64,000 nt of DNA from Candidatus Uhrbacteria bacterium CG10_big_fil_rev_8_21_14_0_10_50_16 (GTDB lineage: Bacteria; Patescibacteriota; Patescibacteriia; UBA9934; UBA11717). Within the stretch, counting starts at the first letter, position 1, and the number at the start of each line of letters is the position of its first letter. The DNA is taken from the NCBI GenBank assembly GCA_002774875.1, contig PCYM01000002.1:14781-78780 (forward strand). The letters are read 5' to 3'. This document shows positions 8,073-61,797 of this stretch, piece by piece. The translations under genes and the position numbers were made by a program. The notes beneath the pieces were generated by a model, which saw only the letters and a list, made by a program, of their open reading frames with translations, ran no database searches and was not told the origin of the DNA.

Positions 8073-8255
8073 TGCCTACAATATAGCCTAAACTGTTACG
8101 AAAGTCACAGCATGGCATAAAAATCTACCAAAGCACTGACCCCGTTGTCAGCGAGCTTTGGTAGGTCGTATGTCGAAAGGCATGCGTTGGGAGTAATCCC
8201 ACGAGCTGGCAGCGGGTTTTGTGCTGTCCGCTCGAATAAATCCTACCAAAGCGCT

Positions 8256-15868: not shown

Positions 15869-16149
15869 CTCAACGTTGTATCAAACGTGTAAAAAATTTC
15901 CACCCGTCGCCAGCGTACAAGAAGCTTACAATACAAGGAAGAGTCGAGCCGGAGCCTGAGTCATCCTGCGAGTAAACTCCATGCTTGTCGTGCACGCTGG
16001 CGACGAGAGGAAAATCACAGGTCGCCGCTAGCGACTGGGAAAGGTATCACGCGAAGGCCATCCTGTCAAGTCAGCGAGGCTCCTCGAATCATTGCAGGAA
16101 GCATTTTAACACACCTGTGGATAATTTATAAGGAAATACATACATTTTG

Positions 16150-24184: not shown

Positions 24185-25666
<1,482 letters not shown>

Positions 25667-28989: not shown

Positions 28990-29300
28990 ATAGGTAGTCC
29001 TTTTACAACAACAAAATCAATGACTCGAGAAGTAGTACTCTTATTACTCCCTGCAAAGCGAATCCGGGATGGTGGAAGCCGGATCATAGAATAAGAAGAA
29101 ATTGGACTCGATGAGATGACGCGTGCTTTTGTGCGTGTCCGGCATCCCCCGTAACCTTGGGATAATGTGTATCTACGGAGCACATGAAAGAGCCTTCTTT
29201 TTTTAGAAGGAATTGAGGTGGTACCGCGGTGGTGGAGAACCCCCGTCCTCAGACAACGTCTTGTTGTCTTTGGGCGGGGGTTTTTTGCCCCACGCAAGGA
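28990..29300 (+). promoter_or_regulatory. T-box riboswitch leader with intrinsic terminator
   Basis: Canonical T-box sequence AATTGAGGTGGTACCGCGGTG at ~29205-29225 (17/19 to AAUUAGGGUGGUACCGCGG); ~300-nt leader; terminator ccccc gtcc...gggcggggg + T6 at ~29242-29290 just before the SD of the downstream operon. Confidence 0.65.
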
Positions 29301-37900: not shown

Positions 37901-38021
37901 ATTAGGTGCAAAGAATCAATACCGGCGGAGTATAGCTGGAAATGCCGTTTTGGTCAAGTACAGGAGGTGTTAAAAGACAAAAAAAACACTCGGTTGTTGA
38001 GACTTCTGGGTGTTTGTCTGG

Positions 38022-38855
38022 TTATGACTGATTGGTATCAATAATGACACTCACCGGATCTCCCAAGTGGTCCCATGTACTTTCTGGGATGTTTGAGACG
38101 AGTTTTGGAACACCGTGATCCTCGTGCACACGCAACTCTGATACATAACCCGACAACTGTTCCTCGTCTCTCAGTCGATCCGCAAATTCTGGCGTCTCAA
38201 AATCTCTTACAGAATATCCTGGGAGCGGAACCCGAGAGAAGCTCTCCCCTTTTGATTGAGGCTCTACAAAAAGTGTCAATTCCATCATCGGTTGAATCAC
38301 ATGACACCAGGCCAGGTTATCGTCATACAGTGCCAACCGTTTGAGCCGCATCGACGCGCCGTGCTCAGACAGATAGTACAGCGAATCATCTGGACGAATT
38401 GTATCGGACACCTCACCTGGTGCACCCCCAGATTGAGTCGCAAACTTGTAGCGCCACACGGACTGTTTGTCTAAATATGCTGCGATATCATCCACGGCCT
38501 CTTTGGTAATACGACGATACGCGTCAGATGTTCGCTTAAGACCTACTAAACGTTTAACGGTTCTCACGCGTAGACGTTCCACCTCTTGCGAAACATGACT
38601 TAGCCCCTCCATTTCCCGCTCGGGAATCATAGGATACTCAAATGGTAACGCAGCAAGTTCACCTTTCCGTTCTTGCATTGCTCGCAGATGACCGATAACC
38701 AAGGAGGGTTTTACTGATTGTTCTGGTTTCTGTACCTCTCCTTCTAATACCTGTACCGGTTGTCGATATTTACTTTTAAGATCTGCCAAAAGACGATCGC
38801 TCCCCATGGCACGCAATCGCTCTTCCTCAGATGACCCACCTTTGTATTCACTCAT
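38022..38855 (-). CDS. Hypothetical protein (277 aa)
   Basis: ORF track; no motif recognised. Confidence 0.45.
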   Translation of the reverse strand: MSEYKGGSSEEERLRAMGSDRLLADLKSKYRQPVQVLEGEVQKPEQSVKPSLVIGHLRAMQERKGELAALPFEYPMIPEREMEGLSHVSQEVERLRVRTVKRLVGLKRTSDAYRRITKEAVDDIAAYLDKQSVWRYKFATQSGGAPGEVSDTIRPDDSLYYLSEHGASMRLKRLALYDDNLAWCHVIQPMMELTLFVEPQSKGESFSRVPLPGYSVRDFETPEFADRLRDEEQLSGYVSELRVHEDHGVPKLVSNIPESTWDHLGDPVSVIIDTNQS

Positions 38856-38876
38856 ACATTACACGTTCAAAATTCT

Positions 38877-39833
38877 TTATTTACAAAGATACTTATGGAC
38901 CACAAATCTAAACGGCAGCAACATAATTGCCCACGGGAATACTACGAGCACCGTTGCAAGGAGTACGTTTGGATCGGAAAAGTAGAGACCAGCAAGATAA
39001 ATAGCCAGTGTAAAGTTCATAAACGTCATGCAAATGGAAACGGCTGTACGATCATTGCAAGGACGCCAGTACGCCACAAAGTAGCCCGCCACCAGTAGCA
39101 AACTAATAAAACAGAACAAAGCGATAACGAGTGAGAGGAGTGTTTGATCAAGGTTGGTCAAAATGACATGCGATTGCTTTGCCACAACGCCCGCAATCAA
39201 CATGCCGAGTAGCAGAAGCGAGATCGGCTTAAAGGTAAATGCCATTTTCTGAATGTGCTTTTGAAAAAACGATCGAACACCCTGTGCGAGAACAAACGGA
39301 ATAACGATCACCTTCACTAAACTCCAAAACATCGTCACACCGCTCACGGTAACGGCAGTGCTCGCAAAAATACCAATCACAAACGGGATCGTAAACGGTG
39401 CTAGCAAGGACGTTGTGAGAGTAAGGACAAGTGCAACATCTGTTTTACCTCCTACAACCTCCGAGAGGAGAGGTGCTGTCATGCCCGTTGGCATTGCCGC
39501 AAGAAGCATGAGCGCAATCGCAAATTCCGGCACAATCCATTGCGCCAACAGATACACAACGGACGGCAACAGCAAGAGCATAAACACGTTTGCCGCAATC
39601 AACATCTTTGTATTTCTGACCGTGCGGAAAATCTCTGTTGGATTGAGCTTGAGGCTCGTGAGAAAAAAGATGATTTGCAAAAGAAGCGTCGCAAAGGGTG
39701 CGAAAATTATTGCGGAATCAGGAAGAAGCAAGCCTGCTCCAAGAGCCAAAAGAATAAGAAAGAAATAGGACTGGACGAGCTGTACGAACCATTGGATAAG
39801 TCTTTGTGACATAATAGCTTTAGTATACCTCAC
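38877..39833 (-). CDS. Bile acid:sodium symporter (BASS) family transporter
   Basis: ~10 TM helices with BASS-like repeats; start may be the downstream Met (MSQRLIQW, 39812). Confidence 0.6.
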   Translation of the reverse strand: MRYTKAIMSQRLIQWFVQLVQSYFFLILLALGAGLLLPDSAIIFAPFATLLLQIIFFLTSLKLNPTEIFRTVRNTKMLIAANVFMLLLLPSVVYLLAQWIVPEFAIALMLLAAMPTGMTAPLLSEVVGGKTDVALVLTLTTSLLAPFTIPFVIGIFASTAVTVSGVTMFWSLVKVIVIPFVLAQGVRSFFQKHIQKMAFTFKPISLLLLGMLIAGVVAKQSHVILTNLDQTLLSLVIALFCFISLLLVAGYFVAYWRPCNDRTAVSICMTFMNFTLAIYLAGLYFSDPNVLLATVLVVFPWAIMLLPFRFVVHKYLCK

Positions 39834-39857
39834 CGTCTCTGTTATACTGAGCCTACT

Positions 39858-40619
39858 ATGTTAAACAAATGGATCAACACGTTTATTCAACTTGGGTTGA
39901 GTGAAGTGGAATCAAAAATCTACTTTGCGGGGTTGGAGTTGGGGCCCACGAGCGCGCAAGAATTAGCACGCAAGGCGAGTGTCTCACGCACGGCCACGTA
40001 CGATGCGATTAATGCGCTCAAAGGGAAGGGATTGTTATCGACGTTTCAAAAGGGAGCAAAAACGGTGTTCACAATCGAGCAGCCTGAGGACGCGCTGCGT
40101 TACTTCCGCAAACAATCGCGACAAATGCGAGATAAGATTGAACTCATGGAAGAGGCCGTGCCGGAAATGAAAAGCCTCTCACCTGGGGAGAAGCCGTTTA
40201 TTCGATTTTACGAGGGACCCGAGGCATTGCGCAACTTATTTGCGGACGTACAGGCCGTCAATCCTCCTTCCATCTACGAGTTTGTAAATATTCAGGATGT
40301 GTATCATTCCGTGCACGACGGGACACCAGAGGTTAAAAAAATATTTGCCGAAGCTCACAATGTATCAGATCCATCACGGCAAGATATACGTCTCCTACAT
40401 ACGGGAAATGTACGAGAAAATTATCAACATCGTAAAGGCGTAGCGTTTCGACAACTGAACAATTCATTTGGTGAGTTTCACGGCGACATCTGGATTTATG
40501 GCGACCGAGTTGTGTTCACCTCATTTAAGGGATCCATTATGGCAATTATCATTCAAAGTGAAATGTTTTCTCAAACTGCCCGTGTCATGTTTGAAGCCGC
40601 CTGGTCTATAAGCAAATAA
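39858..40619 (+). CDS. TrmB-family transcriptional regulator (wHTH + C-terminal domain)
   Basis: N-terminal winged-helix EVESKIYFAGLELGPTSAQELARKASVSRTATYDAINALKGKGLL; paralogue of 45951..46757. Confidence 0.6.
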   Translation: MLNKWINTFIQLGLSEVESKIYFAGLELGPTSAQELARKASVSRTATYDAINALKGKGLLSTFQKGAKTVFTIEQPEDALRYFRKQSRQMRDKIELMEEAVPEMKSLSPGEKPFIRFYEGPEALRNLFADVQAVNPPSIYEFVNIQDVYHSVHDGTPEVKKIFAEAHNVSDPSRQDIRLLHTGNVRENYQHRKGVAFRQLNNSFGEFHGDIWIYGDRVVFTSFKGSIMAIIIQSEMFSQTARVMFEAAWSISK

Positions 40620-41079
40620 CAAACCGCGACCTGCCAGGTGGGCGGATCGCGGTCACAAGATCTGGCGGATCGCGGGGCGCGGACGTCGGAGAACCGACGC
40701 CGCACCCCGCTCTCCGCGCTTCTCAGCCGTTCATGGTGCCCTCCTGTGGCCATGGCTGGTGAAGCTATTCTTCCAACAAAGTTAAGGTCTCTGTGAAGAC
40801 CTGTCCTTGTAGATGCGACGCCGAGGGGGCGTCGTGGTTGGAGTCGCGTGGTACGCGACTTCCGGCCGGGTCTTTCACCCGGCGGAGGGCTGTGGGGGGG
40901 GCTAGCCGCCGAACATGGCGTACCCCTTTCCAGGTTTGATGAACGCATGAGCGCGTTCAATCAAAACCATCTATACCACAATTTTGCGGCTTTGTCAAGC
41001 GTAAGAGGCGTGTTTGTTCGCCTGCGACGTACTAAATAATCTTAAATTTACTGTGAGTTGTCCGCCAAAAGCGTACAAA

Positions 41080-41110
41080 ATAAACCGCTAACTTAAGCGG
41101 TTTATTTTAA
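41080..41110. terminator. Bidirectional terminator aaaccgct-aactt-aagcggttt
   Basis: Perfect 8-bp stem with A/T-rich flanks. Confidence 0.6.
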
Positions 41111-41126
41111 TTCTGGCAACAATGGA

Positions 41127-41155
41127 TTGACACAATGCCTCTTCCATGTTAATCT
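41127..41155 (+). promoter_or_regulatory. Sigma70-like promoter TTGACA-N17-TAATCT at the entrance of the high-GC island
   Basis: Read directly; no convincing ORF for the next ~1.1 kb. Confidence 0.5.
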
Positions 41156-42304
41156 GCTTTGTTCACTGATAGAGCACAACGCCTCAGTGATCCATGCATC
41201 TTACAAACAAACAGTGAAACAGGGCTTGTAACAACTACGTTGCAAGAACAAAGGACGATCGATATGGATCGTTCTCCTGGAATGTGCGTATGGCTGTAGG
41301 AAATTTCATGTAACGGCACTACAACGTACGGCAATCTGGATTAAAAAGGCTGGATCCATGGTCTACAACACCGTTTGAGACACATGTGTCCCCGCCACGC
41401 GGCCCCGCCGCGGATCTCTCGCTAGCACCACATAGACGCCATGCTATAGCTGGTAGCGGGAGATCCGCGGCAGAGGACGCAACCTGTCCAATCCGCACAA
41501 GAACTCTGTTGCCGGTGGGACGGCAAAACAGGGTGGGTGCTTGGCACACCCAGACCATCTGGTCAAAGATAACTCCTGGTAACAGGAGGAAACTCATGGC
41601 GGTAACACCATGGGGATGCGAAAGCATTCATAGCGCCACGCCTATCATGACGTATCCACGTTGGGTCGGGAGACCCCTCCAGGATCGGTACTGGAGTTGA
41701 TAGGTGCTTGCGGGTTGGAACCCTGCAAGAGTGAGTGCGGACAGTGGATTCTCCAATCCACGTTTGCACAGCAATGGTTTGGGCTACGCCCTCAACTGAT
41801 CGCAACCATTTTGTTACCGGCATCGCGCCCGAGTGGCGCGACCAATCAACCACCGGGTTGGTTTGCTGGGGCAATGGCGATCAGGTTGTATGCAAGGAAG
41901 GGCCTAACCGGTGAATCGTTCGTGTCAGTCATCTGCACGGCGATGATCCGGATAAAAAGGCGGATGGTTTGGGCGCCCCCCATTCCGTCCGCTCAACCAG
42001 GAGTCCCAGGCCGGCCAGCCAGGATTCTGAAGTTGAGAACTTGCATACTCCTAAGGCTGACACCCATCAGCCGACCGAATTCCATCGGGTTTTTCCGCTC
42101 AGACGGGCGGAAGACACACGGAAGGGTCAAAGACTGGTTGGCGGTCGCAACCGTCTCGCACAGCCTGAGAAGGCAACCAGCCGCGGGAGTAAGCACTTGC
42201 GTTACTTATTCCCACCTTATCTTCGCGCCCGAGCTTGCAATTCTGCTTGCTCGGACGCTCCACAAACTGCTTGAGTAACTCGAGCTGTTCGTGGAGGAGG
42301 AGCG

Positions 42305-42460
42305 ATGGCCATCACCCCCAGCTACGGAGTGGTGCGTCACGGCGCGGTCTGGTTTACCACCAGCCCGCAGCAGCTCAAGCGTGAGGCCCGTGAAAAGGCC
42401 GATCGCGAGCTGCAGGCGAAGCGACCTTGTGTCGTAATCCGCCGCCGCGCGCACCGGTAG
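42305..42460 (+). CDS. Small high-GC hypothetical protein (51 aa)
   Basis: GGAGGAGG SD immediately upstream of ATG; GC3-rich; below the track length cut-off. Confidence 0.35.
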   Translation: MAITPSYGVVRHGAVWFTTSPQQLKREAREKADRELQAKRPCVVIRRRAHR

Positions 42461-42681
42461 TCCTCATACGCTCGTGGGTCACACGAGCGTAAAAGGGTGC
42501 CGCAAACACCCTGCCCTAGCCAGGCAAAACCCCCGGGCTGCAGGTCCCATCTTGATTGAAAATTCCTGCACAACGTGGACCTGGGCACTGCTCGGGTCTT
42601 CCACAAAGGCGCGATCCTGTATGGCATTTTTGTGGAGGATACAACTCACTTACTGTTCTCGGAGGAGAACGAGGAGGTTCC

Positions 42682-42972
42682 ATGCGTCGATACACATTGT
42701 TCAGTAGCTGGCGTCGATCTGAGCTCGAGATCCCCTCCTCCGGGAGAAGGATCAAGAAGCTGGATAGGACGTTCGAGGTCGGCACCCCGCGGTACCTGAA
42801 GTGGCTCCGGCGCATGTTCCCCGATCAGGTTTACCTGGTCGTGGCGCAGGGAACCATGCCTCAAATGCTCGACCGCGTTCGCGCGCGGTTTGGACAGGAG
42901 GAGGTTCCCGGCGTGGTGTCTGCCACCGTTCAGCTTCAGCGGGACATCCGAGAAAACCCAAGTCTCTACTGA
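42682..42972 (+). CDS. Small high-GC hypothetical protein (96 aa, basic)
   Basis: GAGGAGG SD + ATG 42682 inside track ORF 42556..42972; preceded by a repeat-leader copy. Confidence 0.45.
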   Translation: MRRYTLFSSWRRSELEIPSSGRRIKKLDRTFEVGTPRYLKWLRRMFPDQVYLVVAQGTMPQMLDRVRARFGQEEVPGVVSATVQLQRDIRENPSLY

Positions 42973-42990
42973 AAGGAGGTGCTTCCGTGG

Positions 42991-43055
42991 CCTGAGGAGA
43001 ATCGCTTCTTGGGCCCTGCATAGAGTCTTTGCAAAACGAAGGTTCTATGGAGGAA
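42991..43055 (+). repeat. Repeated ~65-70-nt leader module (copy R1) with conserved 11-bp stem-loop ending in the SD
   Basis: GCCTGAGGAGAATCGCTTCTTGGGCCCTGCATAGAGTCTTTGCAAAACGAAGGTTCTATGGAGG is ~80% identical to the copy at 43711-43790; compensatory base changes keep the CAUAGAGUCYU/ARGRUUNUAUG stem. Confidence 0.55.
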
Positions 43056-43293
43056 AGGAAGTGTCAAATACCCCAGGTGGTATTGACGGCACTTCTGGCG
43101 CCTCACGACCATGTGCTCTCACCAGCACAAATTGGTCACAAAAGAGACGAACAGCAATGCGTCGCGGCTGCCAGTAGGAGGTATACGTACGAGGCCTGAG
43201 AAGATTCACTTCTCGGGCACTCTACAGAATTCTAGGCAGAAAAGGATTCTGAGAGTTAATCAATGTACGCAACAAGAGATTGGGAGGTGTGCG

Positions 43294-43569
43294 ATGAACA
43301 AGCTCAATGTGGTTGAGATAGGTCTTCGTAATGGCAAGGGTCTGAGCTTCACCTGCGGCAAGCTCTATGTCCGCATTACGGTAGACGGCCTCACGCTGCG
43401 CGTTGAGACCAACCTGCCGGTGCGGGCCAAGGAGCTGGCCGAGTCCGAGACGACCCCCGTTCGCCGGTCCGTGTTTGACCGCGCCGATGAGCTGCGCCGA
43501 GGAGGACGGCACAGCGACGTGGACGTGGCGGCAACAGGAGGGCGGCGGGTGATCCGACGCAGAACGTAA
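43294..43569 (+). CDS. Small high-GC hypothetical protein (92 aa)
   Basis: GGGAGG SD + ATG 43294 inside track ORF 43111..43569; preceded by a partial leader-module copy at 43194-43238. Confidence 0.45.
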   Translation: MNKLNVVEIGLRNGKGLSFTCGKLYVRITVDGLTLRVETNLPVRAKELAESETTPVRRSVFDRADELRRGGRHSDVDVAATGGRRVIRRRT

Positions 43570-43710
43570 ACCCCAGCCCGCGATCGGAACACGCGGCAAA
43601 GGCTGTTCCACCCCTCGCCCTCGCGAGCAGACCCCTTGCGTTTGAGCCACGCAATCGGGTCCCGTCCAGAACGGGGTAAGCCATCGCTCCGGGCGGTCAC
43701 GCGCCCCCTT

Positions 43711-43790
43711 GCCTGAGGTCAACTGATTCTCGGGCACTGCATAGAGTCCTTGCTGCACGAGGATTGTATGGAGTCTACAACTTTTGGAGG
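43711..43790 (+). repeat. Repeated leader module (copy R2) abutting the ATG of the 189-aa gene
   Basis: GCCTGAGGTCAACTGATTCTCGGGCACTGCATAGAGTCCTTGCTGCACGAGGATTGTATGGAGTCTACAACTTTTGGAGGTCACC then ATG. Confidence 0.55.
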
Positions 43791-43795
43791 TCACC

Positions 43796-44362
43796 ATGCG
43801 CCTGTTCGGACTTTCTGACTGTTACGATGCGATGGATCTGTACGTCTGCATCAACGGCAAGCACGTGCTCCTGTCCCGGTCGGAGGGGTGGGTGTCTGCC
43901 CGTGTGAAGCCGTGTGACAAGAGCTGTGTTCCCACGGAGATTGATCTGGAGGTGTGGCTGCAGAAGGCACCGCGGAAGGTCCGCAAGGATCCTCGGCTGC
44001 TCGCGTTCGTGGAGCAAGGAGTGCCCGCGTACACGGTGCACCGTTCCTTCGCCAAGCGCTCCGGCGGCAGCGAGACGGTCTGGATCGGCAACCTGGCGAT
44101 CACGTGGAGCTTTTGCGACGCGTCGCGGTTGAGCCAGCGGGACCGGTGGCGAGACCGCTTTGAGATCTGCCCCATCGGGGAGAATGATCTGCTGTGGTGG
44201 ATCCGCGACGTCCTCCCGTCCTCAAGACGGCTCGAAGACGTTGCCGAGGAGATCCGTCGCAATGACGATCTGCTCCTGAGCGAGCTCCGGCAGCGCGGCA
44301 CTCCGGACGCAAACACCCTGGACGCGGATGCCTTCCGGCAGTTTCTCTTGAACCTGCTGTAA
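43796..44362 (+). CDS. High-GC hypothetical protein (189 aa)
   Basis: Start at MRLFGLSD with GGAGG SD supplied by the leader module; terminator gccaaaatccc...gggatttggc+T7 at ~44400-44460. Confidence 0.5.
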   Translation: MRLFGLSDCYDAMDLYVCINGKHVLLSRSEGWVSARVKPCDKSCVPTEIDLEVWLQKAPRKVRKDPRLLAFVEQGVPAYTVHRSFAKRSGGSETVWIGNLAITWSFCDASRLSQRDRWRDRFEICPIGENDLLWWIRDVLPSSRRLEDVAEEIRRNDDLLLSELRQRGTPDANTLDADAFRQFLLNLL

Positions 44363-44592
44363 GAAGACGATCGTGCTCCCCAGCTCCCCGGTTCTCGGGT
44401 TGAGCCAAAATCCCTACGTCAATCCCATCTGTTCTTCTGGTGGGATTTGGCTTTTTTTGCTACATTTCTATTTAATTTTCATCGCCCAACAAACCTAGGG
44501 CGGCGGCATTTATTTATAAACAATACGACCTGAGACTTGATTATCTTATTTTTCTTTTAGGCTAAAATTAGCCATTTTTCCATGGTCACCTC

Positions 44593-44621
44593 TTGACAAA
44601 AGGTGTTTTTTATGGTATAAG
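44593..44621 (+). promoter_or_regulatory. Sigma70-like promoter TTGACA-N17-TATAAG in AT-rich spacer driving the next high-GC ORF
   Basis: Read directly. Confidence 0.5.
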
Positions 44622-44761
44622 ATTGTTACGCCAAAGGTGGAATAGGTTCACCTAACGCGCAGACGATCCGGAACGCTGATTCATACAGCATTCTGAAAGA
44701 CGATAACGGATCGGTCTCGTGCAAGCGAGATACCTATGAACGGGGCTTACCACCCCACGGA

Positions 44762-45460
44762 GTGATGATGGAAAAGGAAACCAACGTCATGGTGCGCCTC
44801 CCGGCGCGAGAATGGGAAATCCTCATCAAGGAGGTCCTCGCCGCAGAGGCAGATCTCCCCTCGTGGGAGTGGTGCAGAACAAGCGGAGCCCCCCGCGAGG
44901 AGGAGGGGCGGCGGCGCGATGCCGCCAGGACCGCTCTGAGGGTGGCCATGGGTCGCTCACCGGCCAACGAGAGGATGGAGGACCGTCTGGCCAACAAGGC
45001 CGGGTGCGTCCTCCTCGTGGACGGCCGGTTTGAGATCGGGGGCTCCGTTGGGGAGCGCAAGCTCCTGATCAACGGCCGAATCCGGGCCACCCTCCGCCTG
45101 GGGGGCCGTCTGGACGGCCGCGTGGATGTCGTCACCCGGGAGGCGGCCGAGGCCGCCTACCAGGAGCGACGACAGGCCTCCCGCCACGCCGAGGCCGCCT
45201 ACAAGGCGGCCCGGCAGGAGCTCATCCACGAGCTCCTGCAGGCGGACCTGGCCGAGCCCGCCGACTTCGGTCGGTGGACATACGCCTACGGGCAGTTCGG
45301 TGGGTATTTCTACCGAACGGGGGTGAGCGGCCCCCGCGTCGCCGCCAACTCCGCCTTCGTGGCGGCGTTCGGCCGCGACTGGAGGAAGACCGCCAACGAT
45401 CGGCGTTGCGAGAAGATCGAGCTCGAGCTCGATCGTCGGCTCTACGGCGCCCGCTACTAG
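44762..45460 (+). CDS. High-GC hypothetical protein (232 aa, Arg/Ala/Glu-rich)
   Basis: GGAG SD then ATGATG; GC3-saturated; followed by a terminator-like hairpin + T-run at ~45517-45575. Confidence 0.5.
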   Translation: MMMEKETNVMVRLPAREWEILIKEVLAAEADLPSWEWCRTSGAPREEEGRRRDAARTALRVAMGRSPANERMEDRLANKAGCVLLVDGRFEIGGSVGERKLLINGRIRATLRLGGRLDGRVDVVTREAAEAAYQERRQASRHAEAAYKAARQELIHELLQADLAEPADFGRWTYAYGQFGGYFYRTGVSGPRVAANSAFVAAFGRDWRKTANDRRCEKIELELDRRLYGARY

Positions 45461-45950
45461 CCCCCCAAAAAAATCCTGAGCAAGCAGGAACCCTTCGGAG
45501 CACATGTCTTGCTACATGTCTCCACCTACGCCCCGAACCACCCCCGTGCAAAATCACGGTCTGGAGGTCCGGGGTTTTGCGTTTTAAAATAGCTGTCTCT
45601 CTTAAACACCCGCATTTTTTTAACATGTTTTCCTGCGTGAGGAGATGCGACGGGTGAAGAAGATGAGATACATCTGACCGCCCAACCAAGAACCGACCCC
45701 CATCGATACGTCGATGAAGGGCGACGTCACTCGGTGGGCGGTTCTTGTTTTTGTTCGTCTCGCAGTAAACATCATTGATACGCCAGGCGAATATTTGAGA
45801 GGATAGTGATATAGGTTGAGTATTTCTACCAGGTGATCACTAATGACTTATGCCGTAGAATTATCCTCTACATCTCGATAAGCACGCATTGCCCTTTTTT
45901 CAGTACTTTGCTAAGTTACATACATGAGTAAGTAGATTTTATTTCCCCAA

Positions 45951-46757
45951 GTGAGCATAATCCCCTATCTTATGAGTGAGCTCAACACAATCAAAACGGC
46001 GCTACAACACCTGCATGCAAGCCCGAACGCCATTTCGTTCTTTCTAACGAGCTACAAGCTGAGTCGTTCTTCCGTTGGACTGATTGCCAAGACCGCCAAG
46101 ATGGATAGGTCTTCGGCATACATCGCCTACGAGCAACTCAAAGAGCTAGGTCTCATGGAGGAGGAGACGGTTGGCAGACGAAAGGTGGTTTGGACACGCG
46201 AACCAAAGGCCGTCATTGCTCGTCTACGCACCGAGATCCGCCGCATGCGAAGGCAGGTAGAGTCTATCGAAGAAGCAATGCCGGAACTCCTCGCACAGTA
46301 TGGCAGTCGTAATGACCGCCCCGTTCTGCAAGTATTTACTGGAAACGACGGTCTCCATCAGATAAAGAACGATATCTTGTCGGGCTCGGGCTTTGAGCTT
46401 CTCCTCATGTCCAACTTCCGTGAGGAGGCTGAGGTTTTTTCACGAGAGGAGCATGACAGCTTTATTCAACAGCGACTCTCGCAAAACATCACACTGCGTC
46501 TCATTGCGACAGACTCTCTCGAGGCACGCAAGATCCAAAGCTCCGATGCAAAAAATCATCGTGAAACTCTTGTAATAGAAGGTGATGCCCCATTTAATAA
46601 TGAAACCTACATCTACGGCAATAAGGTCGCGATGCTCTCATTCAATGAGCAAACTGGCGTTATTGGCTTTATTATTCAGTCAAAGGAGTTTGCAGATGCG
46701 CAGCGCTGGATGTTTGAGCAGATTTGGAAACAATTAAATACAAGTAACAAGACTTGA
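45951..46757 (+). CDS. TrmB-family transcriptional regulator, paralogue of 39858..40619
   Basis: C-terminal IYGNKVAMLSF...GFIIQSKEFADAQRWMFEQIW parallels IYGDRVVFTSF...AIIIQSEMFSQTARVMFEAAW of the first copy; start may be Met 45972. Confidence 0.55.
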   Translation: MSIIPYLMSELNTIKTALQHLHASPNAISFFLTSYKLSRSSVGLIAKTAKMDRSSAYIAYEQLKELGLMEEETVGRRKVVWTREPKAVIARLRTEIRRMRRQVESIEEAMPELLAQYGSRNDRPVLQVFTGNDGLHQIKNDILSGSGFELLLMSNFREEAEVFSREEHDSFIQQRLSQNITLRLIATDSLEARKIQSSDAKNHRETLVIEGDAPFNNETYIYGNKVAMLSFNEQTGVIGFIIQSKEFADAQRWMFEQIWKQLNTSNKT

Positions 46758-46794
46758 TAGCAGCTCACAACCGTTATCAAGGGACTATTAATCT

Positions 46795-47547
46795 ATGCAG
46801 ATCATTGTAAATAACCTTGATACGGAATATACGGATAACGGAGCAGGCGCAACAATCCTCTTGCTACACGGTTGGGGTACAAATGCGCGTTCGTTCAGCT
46901 CACTCACAAATATCCTAAGCTCCAACAATAGGTGCATATCTCTTTCTTTGCCCGGTTTCGGAAAGAGCGAGAACCCTCCTAAGGCATGGGCAGTTGAGGA
47001 CTACGCTGCGTTTGTTCGTCAGTTTCTAATAAAGCTCGACATAGACAATCCAGATGTCCTTATTGGACATTCATTTGGTGGTAGGATCGCCGTTAAGGCA
47101 GTTGCAACGCTCAAAATCTCTCCCAAGAAACTAGTGTTAATTGCTTCTGCTGGATTGGCAGAGGAGACCAAGCACGCATACTTGGCAACGGGAATCATAA
47201 AGATCGGAAAGATCGTCACTTCGATCCCGCCTTTTTCGATTGCACGAAATACGTTGAAGCGCGTAATGCGACGCGCACGTGCAAGCAAGGACTATACGGA
47301 AGCCGGTGCGCTCAAAGACACGTTCGTTAATGTAGTCAATGAACATCTTGGAACAGATGCAAAGAAAGTACGTACTCCAACGTTGCTTATTTGGGGTAAG
47401 GAGGACGCCGAAACACCACTTACAGAGGCAAACGCCTTCAAGCAGAGTATCCCCAACTCTGAGCTTTGCATTATTCCAAACGCCGGTCATTTTGTCTTTC
47501 AGGAACAGTCCCGTACCGTCGCAAGAGCCATAAAACATTTCCTATGA
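46795..47547 (+). CDS. Alpha/beta-fold hydrolase
   Basis: HGWG oxyanion region and nucleophile elbow GHSFGG. Confidence 0.7.
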   Translation: MQIIVNNLDTEYTDNGAGATILLLHGWGTNARSFSSLTNILSSNNRCISLSLPGFGKSENPPKAWAVEDYAAFVRQFLIKLDIDNPDVLIGHSFGGRIAVKAVATLKISPKKLVLIASAGLAEETKHAYLATGIIKIGKIVTSIPPFSIARNTLKRVMRRARASKDYTEAGALKDTFVNVVNEHLGTDAKKVRTPTLLIWGKEDAETPLTEANAFKQSIPNSELCIIPNAGHFVFQEQSRTVARAIKHFL

Positions 47548-48974
47548 CTACCTCTTTTCTATCTCGCTATCGTCCTCGATTCTTACGCTCACTCGTATAC
47601 ATGCTCCAAGCCACGGAATACAACATTGGTGATTACATCAACTGGCTCCACCGAACGCGTGACTTTAGTAAGGTCGAGAAGCGCAAGCAACTTAAGCAAT
47701 CGCACAAAGCGCTTGCTCTCCTGTACCTTGGCAGACTTCTTTGGCTCGCGCTCATACTGTTAGGCACTTCTCTTTCTGTTTATGGGTCAGCTATTGCTAC
47801 AAAACTCTTAGGCATCCTCGTACTCATGCTGTCTCCGTTTCTATTGGCGTACATAATCACGATCCCCCTATTTATTCTCAAACTATTTGTACAAAAACCC
47901 ATCGAAGCACTCATAATCTGGCGTGCGACGCAAACAATGGCACGTCACAAAGGGGTAAAAATTGCTATTGCTGGTAGTTACGGAAAAACATCCATGAGAG
48001 AAATGCTCCACACCGTTTTGTCTGAGGGTAAGCACGTTGCAGCCCCTCCACATAGTTACAACACGCCGCTAGGCGTTAGCGCTTTTGTTAAAACACTCAA
48101 AGGAGATGAGAAAGTGTTGATCTTTGAGCTGGGAGAATACTACCCGGGTGATGTAGCAAAGCTTTGCAAGATCGTGCAACCCGACATCGGGGTCATTACT
48201 GGAATCAATGAGGCACACCTGCAGAAATTTAAAACATTAAAGCAAACCGCCAAAACGATCTTTGAGTTAGCCGAGGCGTTACCATCGCAACCAGTTTATA
48301 TAAATGGAGAGAGTCAAATTGCGTGCACATATGCAAAAGAATCTCACATCCTTTATGACCAAAATGGAATTGGGAGCTGGCACGTACATAATCCAGCAAC
48401 AGACCTATCGGGCACATCTTTCACGCTCACAAAGGATGACCAACAGATCAAGCTCAAATCAAAACTTCTCGGCATGCATCAGATTGGTCCATTAGTCGCG
48501 GCAGTCGACATCGCTCACAAGCTCGGCCTAACAAACGAACACATTCAGTCCGGCGTTGCCAATACAAAACCATTTGAGCATCGCCTCGAACCAAGAGTTG
48601 ATGAAAGCGGTATTACAACGCTTGACGACAGCTATAACGGTAACCCCGACGGAGTACGTGTCGTCATCGACTTTCTTAAAACCCTCAAGGGTCGTCGATT
48701 CTATGTAACGCCCGGGCTCGTGGAGATGGGCTCGCGCTCAAAAGAGGTTCACATGAAGATTGGCCATCAGCTCGCTAGCGCGAAGATAGAGCGCGTCGTA
48801 CTAATAAGCAACTCTGTCACCCCCTATATTGAGCAAGGGTTGCGAGAAGCCAACTACAAGGGAGAAATTATTTGGTTCGATGATGCTCTCAAAGCCTACG
48901 CAACCTTGCCTAGCATGACCGTGAAGGGCGACATTATTCTTCTTCAAAACGATTGGCCCGATCAATATGCCTAA
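47544..48974 (+). CDS. murF: UDP-N-acetylmuramoyl-tripeptide--D-alanyl-D-alanine ligase MurF with N-terminal membrane extension
   Basis: Mur ligase P-loop IAGSYGKTS and C-terminal Mur ligase domain; ATGA overlap with the upstream gene. Confidence 0.75.
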   Translation: MTTSFLSRYRPRFLRSLVYMLQATEYNIGDYINWLHRTRDFSKVEKRKQLKQSHKALALLYLGRLLWLALILLGTSLSVYGSAIATKLLGILVLMLSPFLLAYIITIPLFILKLFVQKPIEALIIWRATQTMARHKGVKIAIAGSYGKTSMREMLHTVLSEGKHVAAPPHSYNTPLGVSAFVKTLKGDEKVLIFELGEYYPGDVAKLCKIVQPDIGVITGINEAHLQKFKTLKQTAKTIFELAEALPSQPVYINGESQIACTYAKESHILYDQNGIGSWHVHNPATDLSGTSFTLTKDDQQIKLKSKLLGMHQIGPLVAAVDIAHKLGLTNEHIQSGVANTKPFEHRLEPRVDESGITTLDDSYNGNPDGVRVVIDFLKTLKGRRFYVTPGLVEMGSRSKEVHMKIGHQLASAKIERVVLISNSVTPYIEQGLREANYKGEIIWFDDALKAYATLPSMTVKGDIILLQNDWPDQYA

Positions 48975-50112
48975 CAAGAAAACAATCGCAGTAATCTTTG
49001 GTGGGAAAAGTGCCGAGCATGACGTCTCTATTATCACGGCCCACACGCCCATCATCCAGTCACTTGTTGCTATGGGCAAGTACAACATCCTACCTATCTA
49101 TGTTACAAAGGACGGTGATTGGTATTCCGATGAAGCAATGAACGATATGGCTTACTTTAGGAAAGGTGGTATTGAAGGCAAGCTCAAGAAATTAAAGCCT
49201 CTTCAACTGTCACTCGGGAATGCTTTGTCTATTATTTTTCCAGGCATCATCCCGAAGACTGTAAAAGTCGACATTGTATTTCCAGCTATGCACGGAACGT
49301 TCGGCGAAGATGGGAGTCTCATGGGGGTTCTGCGCATGGCAAACGTTCCGTTCGTCGGTTGCGATCTTGCCGCATCTGCCGTTGCCATGGACAAGGTATT
49401 CACCAAGCAAATTGCAGAAGCAGAAGGCATCCCAGTTGTGCCGTATGTTTGGTTTACCAAACAAGAATGGCTATCCGATATGGACGTTTGCATCAAGAAG
49501 ACCGCCGGACTAACGTGGCCACTGTTTGTAAAGCCGGTACACCTTGGCTCATCTATTGCTATTACAAAAGTAAAGAATCAAACAGAACTCAAACGCGCTA
49601 TTGAAGTCGCATTTCATTATGACGACAAAGTGCTGGTTGAGGAGAGTGTAGACAATCTCATTGAGGTCACGCTTCCAATCATGGGGAATGACCAGCCCCA
49701 GGTTGCCAGCATTGAGCGACCTTTGAACAAGACAGAGTTTTTTAACTTTGAAGACAAATATCTGTCTGGCGGGAAAAAAGGATCGGGAGGTAACAGCGCT
49801 TATAGTGAAGTCCCTGCAAAAATATCATCAGATCTTGCACACAAAGTAGAAGAGCTGGGAAAACAAGTCTATCGCGTTCTAGGATGCACGGGCACCGCAC
49901 GCGTTGACTTCCTTATTAACTCAAAGCGAGAGCACATATTCGTTAACGAGGTGAACACGCTCCCCGGGAGTCTCTACCATCACAACTGGAAGATGTCGGG
50001 TGTGTCTAATATTGATCTTGTACGCAGACTTATCGAGCTCGGAGAGGAAAAATTCCTAAGAGAATCAACAATCGTACGTGTGTTTAAATCCAACGTGTTG
50101 CACAAAGACTAA
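48967..50112 (+). CDS. ddl: D-alanine--D-alanine ligase
   Basis: ATP-grasp Ddl pattern (IAVIFGGKSAEHDVSI..., FVNEVNTLPG). Confidence 0.8.
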   Translation: MPNKKTIAVIFGGKSAEHDVSIITAHTPIIQSLVAMGKYNILPIYVTKDGDWYSDEAMNDMAYFRKGGIEGKLKKLKPLQLSLGNALSIIFPGIIPKTVKVDIVFPAMHGTFGEDGSLMGVLRMANVPFVGCDLAASAVAMDKVFTKQIAEAEGIPVVPYVWFTKQEWLSDMDVCIKKTAGLTWPLFVKPVHLGSSIAITKVKNQTELKRAIEVAFHYDDKVLVEESVDNLIEVTLPIMGNDQPQVASIERPLNKTEFFNFEDKYLSGGKKGSGGNSAYSEVPAKISSDLAHKVEELGKQVYRVLGCTGTARVDFLINSKREHIFVNEVNTLPGSLYHHNWKMSGVSNIDLVRRLIELGEEKFLRESTIVRVFKSNVLHKD

Positions 50113-50168
50113 TGGCATATGCTCTCCCACCCTGCAACGAAAAACACCCCTTTCGGGGTGCCTTTCGT

Positions 50169-50244
50169 TGGAGCGGGTAGAGGGAATCGAACCCTCATCT
50201 CAAGCTTGGAAGGCTCGCATAATAAGCCACTATACTATACCCGC
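50169..50244 (-). tRNA. tRNA-Gly (anticodon UCC)
   Basis: Reverse complement GCGGGTATAGTATAGTGGCTTATTATGCGAGCCTTCCAAGCTTGAGATGAGGGTTCGATTCCCTCTACCCGCTCCA; anticodon loop CTTCCAA; T-arm GAGGG-TTCGATT-CCCTC. Confidence 0.75.
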
Positions 50245-61767: not shown

Positions 61768-61797
61768 TTGACAAAATCTGCTTTTTCTGGTACATTC
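61768..61797 (+). promoter_or_regulatory. Sigma70-like promoter TTGACA-N17-TACATT heading a ~390-nt structured leader into the last high-GC gene
   Basis: Read directly; leader contains several perfect short hairpins. Confidence 0.45.

Follow-up and report, generated by a model that had tools for sequence, protein, structure and literature searches.

Introduction

To our knowledge, bacteria very rarely have non-coding RNAs (ncRNAs) that exceed ~500 nt and adopt elaborate conserved folds, and the main examples are OLE, GOLLD, ROOL, RNase P and the group II introns. Each of these has proved to be a ribozyme, a ribonucleoprotein (RNP) machine or an unexpected RNA-only assembly. OLE is an ornate RNA of ~600 nt found in anaerobic and extremophilic Bacillota, where it forms an RNP with OapA, OapB and OapC. 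A neighborhood of tRNA genes is typical of GOLLD and ROOL. Among the long 5′ leaders, the T-box is a long structured 5′ leader, and EAR and put are processive-antitermination RNAs. GOLLD (RF01998) and ROOL (RF03087), which are giant ornate RNAs, assemble into multimeric cages of RNA only (PMC12286853). In this work, a stretch of 64,000 nt (the window) from a Crystal Geyser assembly of Candidatus Uhrbacteria, a member of the Candidate Phyla Radiation (CPR, Patescibacteria), is analyzed. The stretch 41162-42300 of the window is very probably a functional structured RNA. The family of this RNA is absent from Rfam and is a new large structured RNA, found in at least five Uhrbacteria populations.

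The RNA shares with OLE (RF01071) a core of 600-700 nt, many helices, strictly conserved single-stranded nucleotides, a chromosomal location, very high conservation and, in some genomes, small protein genes directly downstream, and for neither RNA is a biochemical function known. On the other hand, there is no match to OLE in sequence or structure, the host belongs to the CPR/Patescibacteria and not to the Bacillota, no oapA-like membrane protein gene is adjacent, and the known distribution (five sequences) is far narrower. The RNA resembles GOLLD and ROOL in size class, multi-domain fold, multiple tetraloops and the lack of an associated function, and in one relative (L007, see below) the GC-rich island that holds it adjoins a tRNA gene. 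Unlike these RNAs, it has no Rfam match and lies at a fixed chromosomal locus next to a gene for a TrmB-like regulator, not in a prophage. A strong promoter, rRNA-like conservation and long-range helices that close multi-helix junctions are shared with RNase P RNA, tmRNA, signal recognition particle (SRP) RNA and 6S RNA, and the short strings CUGGUAACAG and GGAAACU presumably recall the M1 RNA of E. coli. However, none of these models matches at E<=10, and RNase P RNA is half as large. As the RNA is restricted to some Uhrbacteria, it is not a universal housekeeping RNA.

Genomic Setting and Homologues

The RNA is located in a stretch of raised G+C content (55-72% vs ~47%), here called the island, which starts at the stop codon of the TrmB-like regulator gene (39858-40619; Pfam TrmB match). 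The G+C content of the region 41127-42300 is 55-58%, compared with ~47% in the flanking genes. The island is 100% identical in six contigs from several public samples and 99.9% identical in one further contig. Relatives were retrieved by a cluster look-up of a 188-aa open reading frame (ORF) of the island (43796-44362; PIR47740.1, annotated Candidatus Uhrbacteria bacterium CG10), in which a 93%-identical variant led to the contigs L007-L013 (UBA11717, DOMJ01000036.1). In these contigs, the orthologous TrmB gene is followed by the same island. When the 188-aa ORF itself was used to search for homologues, only its own cluster came back and none outside these species, and a scan of genome contigs with the TrmB alignment led to no lineage other than that of L007 (UBA11717). 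The next-closest TrmB orthologues share only 39-47% identity with the protein of the window, and in these distant contigs gaps of 1-1.6 kb without genes follow TrmB.

In L007, L026, L036 and L078, a homologue of the core of the RNA follows downstream of the orthologous TrmB-like gene and lies on the same strand. Using nhmmer, L026 8030-8724 (GCA_018701105.1) was aligned to 41513-42203 of the window (E=8e-23), with blocks of at most 14 identical bases between indel-rich stretches. The fifth copy, L078/L079, was reached via the closest TrmB relative of L026 and matches the window with E=2.5e-30 in nhmmer. A metagenome scan with the pattern of the best block resulted in 47 loci, only one of which (L036) is real. 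The covariance model R1, which covers the 90 nt of the best-conserved sub-domain, matches only the known copies among the loci examined. No core homologue was detected with nhmmer and R1 in L024, L074, L075 and L076; the conserved-block patterns gave no matches or chance matches in viral contigs; blastn in a "distant" mode gave no match in phage and plasmid collections; and no second copy was found in the window. The L026-type sequences form a second clade, with a TrmB only ~43% identical to that of the window.

Layout, Promoter and Fold of the RNA

The following elements make up the locus of the RNA; SD denotes the Shine-Dalgarno sequence, and orf51 is a small ORF directly downstream.
41079-41110 (hairpin with its T/A runs at ~41082-41109), between the promoters P3 (minus strand) and P1 (plus strand): insulator or bidirectional intrinsic terminator; sequence AAACCGCU-AACUUA-AGCGGUUU, then AUUUUA.
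41127-41155, plus strand: promoter P1; -35 TTGACA at 41127-41132, 17-nt spacer ending in TGT, extended -10 TGtTAATCT (TAATCT at 41150-41155).
41162-42304, plus strand: non-coding part of the P1 transcript, ~1.14 kb; start placed by the position of the -10 element, no terminator ahead of orf51.
41163-41190, plus strand: 5′ hairpin with the conserved start GCUUUGUUC...CACAACG.
41263-41394, plus strand: variable stretch, ~30% different between the window and L007, with some helices kept by compensatory changes.
41401-41475, plus strand: long near-perfect hairpin with G-U pairs, found only in the window/L007 lineage and identical in L007.
41507-42215, plus strand: conserved core of ~710 nt with ~28 helices.
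Within the core, invariant blocks: GGUCAAAGAUAACU (41561), CUGGUAACAG (41576), AUAGCGCCA (41630), GCUGGGGC (41865), CCUAACC (41903), GGAUAAAA (41950), AGGCCGGCCAGCCA (42008), UGAGAAC (42034), CCGAAUU (42075), GGUCAAAG (42125) and CGGGAGUAA (42184).
42259-42295, plus strand: 3′ hairpin UCCACAAACUGCUUGAG-UAAC-UCGAGCUGUUCGUGGA, the 3′ arm of which overlaps the start of the SD of orf51 (GGAGGAGGAG, 42293-42302).

Transcription of the plus strand would start from P1, a near-consensus, rRNA-like sigma-70 promoter. A consensus promoter directly after a terminator had been pointed out in the initial annotation of this DNA, and both are indeed present. The pattern TTGACA-N14-TGN-TANNNT has 3 matches in the window, compared with 0.01 expected; the two other full sites are at 16041-16069 (minus) and 61768-61796 (plus). 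The architecture of P1 is also found at the orthologous position in L026 (TTGACA-17-TAGAGT), L078 (TTGACA-17-TAAAGT), L024, L074 and L075; the promoter of L036 was not read. P1 resembles the 16S rRNA promoter of the same genome (~23893; TTGACAAGAT...TACAAT), and the -35 context of the latter is common to P1 of L024 and L026. A search for a boxA-like antitermination motif common to the 16S leader and the P1 RNA found none. The terminator hairpin has an equivalent at the same place in L026, L074 and L078, and a permissive Rfam scan gave a terminator-like alignment there.

The same 5′ start, GCCUUUGUUCGAG...CACAACG or CACGACG, is present in L026 and L078, and both have a comparable 3′ hairpin that is followed by GGGAGAG and no ORF. 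At the place of the long hairpin 41401-41475, L026 has a short hairpin only. The core contains several GNRA-type tetraloops and strictly invariant single-stranded joiners, and the long-range pairings 41516-24/42158-67 and 41710-22/42136-48, which belong to the helices with good support, close it into a multi-domain fold. The 300-nt windows of 41162-42304 have folding z-scores of -3.6 to -6.5 (about -3 to -7 for the whole island, near 0 for flanking genes), and the cores of the window (41500-42215) and L026 have nearly the same value (-6.88 and -6.87). The minimum free energy (MFE) of 41160-42300 is -501 kcal/mol on the plus strand and -476 on the minus strand. Substitutions within the lineage keep 13 pairs and break 8 in the plus-strand fold, and keep 12 and break 17 in the minus-strand fold. 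These counts and the abundant G-U pairs identify the plus strand as the RNA strand, and its MFE is lower as well.

Conservation and Covariation

Between the window and L007, the DNA identity is 83% for TypA and 76% for TrmB, and 41401-42093 differs at 6 of 693 nt (0.9%). The synonymous sites of the small ORFs in the island are ~nine-fold above this value of the RNA core (24.5 of 320; Fisher p=4e-8), and the synonymous sites of four pooled host genes are fifty-fold above it (476 of 1006, or 0.47; p=4e-124). An independent replicate is given by L026 and L036, in which the RNA has 18 differences in 800 nt (2.3%) vs 193 in 700 for TrmB (p=1e-49). In both species pairs, the flanking genes are 15-47% different.

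The changes that do occur between the window and L007 respect the fold. Within 41739-41769, a G-U pair is changed to A-U, a G-C to G-U and a U-A to U-G in two nested helices, and a C-to-T change mends a C-A mismatch in the hairpin 41534-41552. Also, in the hairpin 42463-42495 after the orf51 stop, 11 positions differ from L007 while all nine pairs are kept, four of them by double changes (42470-42492), and the flanks are invariant. Such a mosaic of invariant and free-running parts is the outcome of selection on an RNA; a uniform recent transfer would not lead to it.

The helices were counted on sequence-based MAFFT alignments, with a four-sequence alignment of the core for RNAalifold. RNAalifold predicted 138 pairs, 53 of which are kept through changes on both sides. 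In this structure, 98.9% of the cells are paired, compared with ~41% after a slide of 1-3 columns for the 3′ partners, and the number of pairs changed on both sides drops from 53 in register to 4-8. As this structure is drawn from the same alignment, the count was redone with an MFE structure predicted solely from the window sequence, in which 46 of the 244 pairs are changed on both sides (7-12 when slid) and 84% of the cells are paired (~40% when slid). The observed covariation values were reached in none of 500 shuffles. More independent compensatory changes come from L078, within the second clade, as in a hairpin with the arms CUCCUG/CAGGAG (window), CUUCUG/CAGAGG (L026) and CUCUUG/CAAGAG (L078). 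As in structured ncRNAs generally, helices are kept by compensatory substitution beyond the controls.

Absence of a Protein-Coding Gene

Four ORFs of the region had been considered, the first three of which overlap each other.
41386-41700: 104-aa ORF.
41661-42278: 205-aa ORF.
41969-42274: 101-aa ORF.
41596-41703, plus strand: 35-codon ORF with AGGAGG upstream; not conserved as an ORF and not a gene.

The initial annotation described the three longest ORFs as overlapping and as having a third-position composition unlike that of the GC3-saturated genes of the island. Both observations hold: the ORFs exist, and their G+C contents at the three codon positions (GC1, GC2 and GC3) are flat (0.55-0.65), while the small ORFs downstream have a coding signature (GC3 0.73-0.87, GC2 0.44-0.52). 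No ORF in 41127-42300 has a match in Pfam, NCBIfam or PADLOC. For the 205-aa ORF, the window and L007 differ evenly at the three codon positions (2, 2, 2), the ratio of nonsynonymous to synonymous divergence (pN/pS) is 1.75, and a -1/+1 indel pair at 42094-42112 is a local, compensated frameshift. Over the ORFs of the region, pN/pS ranges from 0.66 to 2.3, with differences on all codon positions. When the stop-free stretches of the L026 RNA were compared with the window core using tblastn, all matches clustered at a single conserved nucleotide block and were spread over five frames. No reading frame is common to both clades, and the lengths of the indels between homologues are not multiples of three.

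A protein gene or pseudogene was therefore rejected, as there is no conserved frame, no third-position excess and no protein homology. The even codon-position differences, the compensated frameshift and the five-frame similarity across clades run counter to the earlier suggestion of a decayed gene. The 35-codon ORF had been described as well initiated, but its apparent SD and start codon belong to two RNA hairpins. The AGGAGG (41583-41588) serves as 3′ arm in a hairpin with a GUAA loop (41573-78/41583-88), and the ATG at 41596 lies within the stem 41593-99/41608-14. The start is lost in the other clade, where L026, L036 and L078 have ACG with the partner base changed too. The stretch 41127-42300 has no real reading frame and is not a decayed gene. 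The large ncRNA that was among the earlier proposals is strongly supported by the homologues, the covariation, the extreme nucleotide conservation and the lack of a common frame.

Comparison with Known RNA Families

The whole window was searched with Rfam 15 (4227 models, including OLE, GOLLD, ROOL, HEARO, raiA, RNase P, tmRNA, group I and II introns and ribozymes), and nothing was found in 40600-46000 at gathering thresholds. At E<=10, the searches of 40900-42700, 40500-46000 and L026 7300-9000 resulted in chance matches to miRNAs, snoRNAs and leaders, none of them in the core. The Rfam/Infernal scan that had been suggested for a group II intron, retron, RNase P or ornate RNA thus returned no family. 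Elsewhere in the window, Rfam identified a LOOT RNA (8085-8202), a T-box leader (29011-29253) and a 16S rRNA (24185-25665) without an adjacent 23S. Also, no tRNA-like or tmRNA elements and no tandem repeats were found in the island.

Group II introns are recognized by the catalytic hairpins of domains V/VI, a GUGYG 5′ end and usually an intron-encoded reverse transcriptase. This candidate was rejected, as there is no match to Intron_gpII or group-II-D1D4, no domain V-like 34-nt hairpin on reading and no Pfam-matching ORF. A retron msr-msd has an adjacent reverse transcriptase gene, a short RNA (~150-250 nt) and inverted repeats. This was rejected as well, because no reverse transcriptase is present among the ORFs of 38000-47500 scanned with Pfam and PADLOC, and the RNA is four to five times too long.

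A Free-Standing RNA or a Leader

In L026, L036 and L078, the RNA ends in its own intrinsic terminator, no ORF follows and the next gene is convergent. In the L026 clade, the predicted transcript starts at P1 and runs ~1.05 kb into the terminator. The 3′ parts of L026 and L036 differ by indels of 2 and 4 nt, which exclude a hidden ORF there. As the RNA has its own terminator without downstream genes in these three genomes, it is not merely a leader. In addition, a homologue of orf51 is present in L074 (7028-7189; uncalled, read from the sequence as MTTKSYGVVMHLATWFTT...) behind a leader that is not homologous to the RNA. The RNA without the genes and orf51 without the RNA indicate that the two are separable, and the earlier idea of an RNA serving the downstream small genes is not supported in its original form. 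By analogy with the described large RNAs, it is reasonably probable that the RNA acts in trans, as an RNP scaffold or a ribozyme-like molecule, and not as a cis-regulator. The compactly folded RNA would then resemble OLE, GOLLD, ROOL or RNase P RNA in its mode of action. In the window genome, it may be released from, or merely share, a ~3.3-kb transcript with small ORFs that appear to have been horizontally acquired.

Several points weigh against this. The five sequences represent two deep clades and close relatives, with few independent events per compensatory change. The MAFFT alignment is unreliable in places, notably at the 3′ end of the core near the second GGUCAAAG block, and the covariation counts were set against slid and shuffled controls that are not phylogeny-aware. 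Both the transcription start and the 3′ end of the RNA are inferred from the DNA, and no specific biochemical activity is suggested by the results. Two features of the window would suit a leader as well: a convincing terminator is missing between the RNA and orf51, and the SD of this gene is contacted by the 3′ hairpin. Also, non-homologous and equally structured RNAs are found at the same slot in other genomes, so the role could be a generic one, such as stabilizing or insulating the transcript.

The main rival explanation, which we consider rather unlikely, is a very long cis-acting 5′ leader that controls, stabilizes or protects the small-gene operon. The 3′ hairpin might gate the SD of orf51, or the structure might shield the untranslated transcript from Rho or RNases. 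As in the T-box, EAR and put leaders, the RNA is promoter-proximal and untranslated, genes follow it in the window and its 3′ hairpin overlaps an SD. No terminator lies between the RNA and orf51. Leaders of the riboswitch, T-box or attenuator type precede their target genes throughout and have an expression platform, either a terminator or an SD-sequestering helix; an SD-overlapping hairpin is present in the window, but in L026, L036 and L078 the RNA is followed by no gene. In L024, L074 and L075, small ORFs lie behind this promoter and 5′ start, and the leaders of L074 and L075, although non-homologous, have an equally strong structure (z -8.9 and -7.6), which suggests a generic leader property at this locus. 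However, the RNA is five to ten times longer than the known leaders and is kept free-standing in L026, L036 and L078, where it has nothing to regulate, and in L074 orf51 occurs without it. In addition, ~99% identity over 700 nt and the invariant joiners are far beyond the needs of known leaders.

An origin as a selfish or mobile RNA, for example by insertion of a self-splicing intron without an ORF, or of an element with a ribozyme, into the P1 leader of some lineages, is improbable. CPR bacteria are rich in self-splicing introns. The RNA has the size, the GNRA loops and the patchy distribution of ORF-less group I/II introns; its core is present in two clades and absent from L024, L074, L075 and L076, which share the promoter and the 5′ start, and it forms a discrete module in a transcribed region, between lineage-specific flanks. 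Against such an origin, no group I/II or Rfam ribozyme model matches at E<=10 in the window or L026, and there is no intron-encoded protein, recognizable domain V, exon context or second copy in the window. No pair of empty and filled sites with clean boundaries was found, the locus is the same in every carrier genome, and in three genomes the RNA is a stand-alone gene.

A recent horizontal transfer of the GC-rich island between the two species, with the stretch as a spacer or decaying gene, is highly improbable: the foreign-looking GC3 of the island ORFs (0.73-0.87), their synonymous divergence (pS 0.077 vs 0.47 in host genes) and the different gene contents of the window and L007 do suggest that the cassette part was probably exchanged recently, but the RNA core is ~9-fold less divergent than the synonymous sites of these same ORFs (p=4e-8), hypervariable patches lie beside invariant ones (including the 42470-42492 hairpin with its four compensatory pairs), no protein homology is present in any frame, and the second clade, with its ~43%-identical TrmB, contradicts a transfer by keeping the RNA with 46-53 compensated pairs.

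The P1 Slot, the Minus-Strand RNA and the Downstream Genes

The other features of the island are listed here.
40620-40999, minus strand: second structured RNA; promoter TTGACA (40999-40994), 17 nt, TGgTATAGA.
42305-42460, plus strand: orf51, the first real gene of the transcript; small conserved protein, GC3 0.79, called in several assemblies.
42978-43064, 43181-43268 and 43701-43785, with a weaker copy at ~42560-42650: two-hairpin modules (L007 7703, 7907, 9402 and 9906).

Several Uhrbacteria have a common layout, in which a TrmB-like gene is followed by a GC-rich segment with a minus-strand promoter, a hairpin terminator, P1, a long untranslated RNA and variable small ORFs. In L024, both TrmB paralogues are present in tandem. 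In the P1 slot of L074 and L075, untranslated RNAs are found (L074 6292-7020, 729 nt, z -8.9; L075 6362-7340, 979 nt, z -7.6) that resemble neither the window RNA nor one another in sequence. The slot may hold large RNAs that are interchangeable, or the RNAs of L074 and L075 may be homologues that have diverged too far to be recognized by sequence.

The minus-strand RNA runs ~340 nt towards the TrmB stop, ends in a hairpin with a U-rich tail (z = -8.56) and differs by ~3% from that of L007. It contains two SD-preceded mini-ORFs, ATGAACGGCTGA (MNG-stop, 40734-40723) and ATGTTCGGCGGCTAG (MFGG-stop, 40916-40902), with counterparts in L074 and L075 (MNG-stop), L026 (MFGC-stop) and L078 (MIGA-stop and MIGI-stop).

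The small ORFs between 42305 and 45460 (51, 96, 91, 188 and 223 aa) have a GC3 of 0.73-0.87, compared with ~0.5 for the genes of the genome, and the synonymous divergence of the first four from L007 is 0.077 vs 0.47 for host genes. None of the five has a match in Pfam, PHROGs, PADLOC or NCBIfam, and only orf51 has a detectable relative, in L074. The five look like recently acquired foreign genes. In the same four databases, the extra ORFs of L007 gave a partial receiver domain in one L007-only ORF and otherwise sub-threshold noise.

A two-hairpin module of ~68-90 nt (GCCUGAG..CUCGGGC, then CAUAGA..UCUAUG) precedes each small ORF, with compensatory changes between the copies. In L007, two copies exactly enclose an additional 1.4 kb that holds three ORFs, as if the modules were cassette boundaries. 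A reading of the modules as attC sites of an integron was rejected, as both the R'/R'' consensus (GTTRRRY) and an integrase are absent, and the module pattern gave chance matches only in viral contigs. L007 lacks a 5.7-kb segment of the window (44422-50162), and its island directly adjoins tRNA-Gly (window 50169-50244, minus). The 5.7-kb segment has a terminator (~44415-44450), a promoter (TTGACA-17-TGgTATAAG, ~44594) and the 223-aa ORF at 70% G+C, as well as a second TrmB-like gene, a hydrolase, a Mur ligase and Ddl.

Significance

CPR bacteria have genomes of ~1 Mb with little spare DNA. An RNA of more than 1 kb, with an rRNA-grade promoter and ~99% identity while its neighbors drift to 53-85%, indicates that something important is made. 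In the literature searched, no such RNA has been described for the CPR, a very large radiation without cultivated members. The known distribution of five sequences limits the reach of the finding, and the sequence set and helix map suffice for a covariance model, searches of groundwater metatranscriptomes and in vitro probing or cryo-EM. Tentatively, and by analogy with the described ornate RNAs, this may be the first large ornate RNA class specific to the CPR/Patescibacteria, with a length of ~0.7-1.1 kb, an rRNA-grade promoter and a compact tertiary fold, which would be catalytic or self-assembling. It would then belong to a conserved Uhrbacteria locus, consisting of the TrmB-like regulator, an antisense RNA with mini-ORFs and P1, that hosts interchangeable giant RNAs and gains small foreign cassettes behind them.

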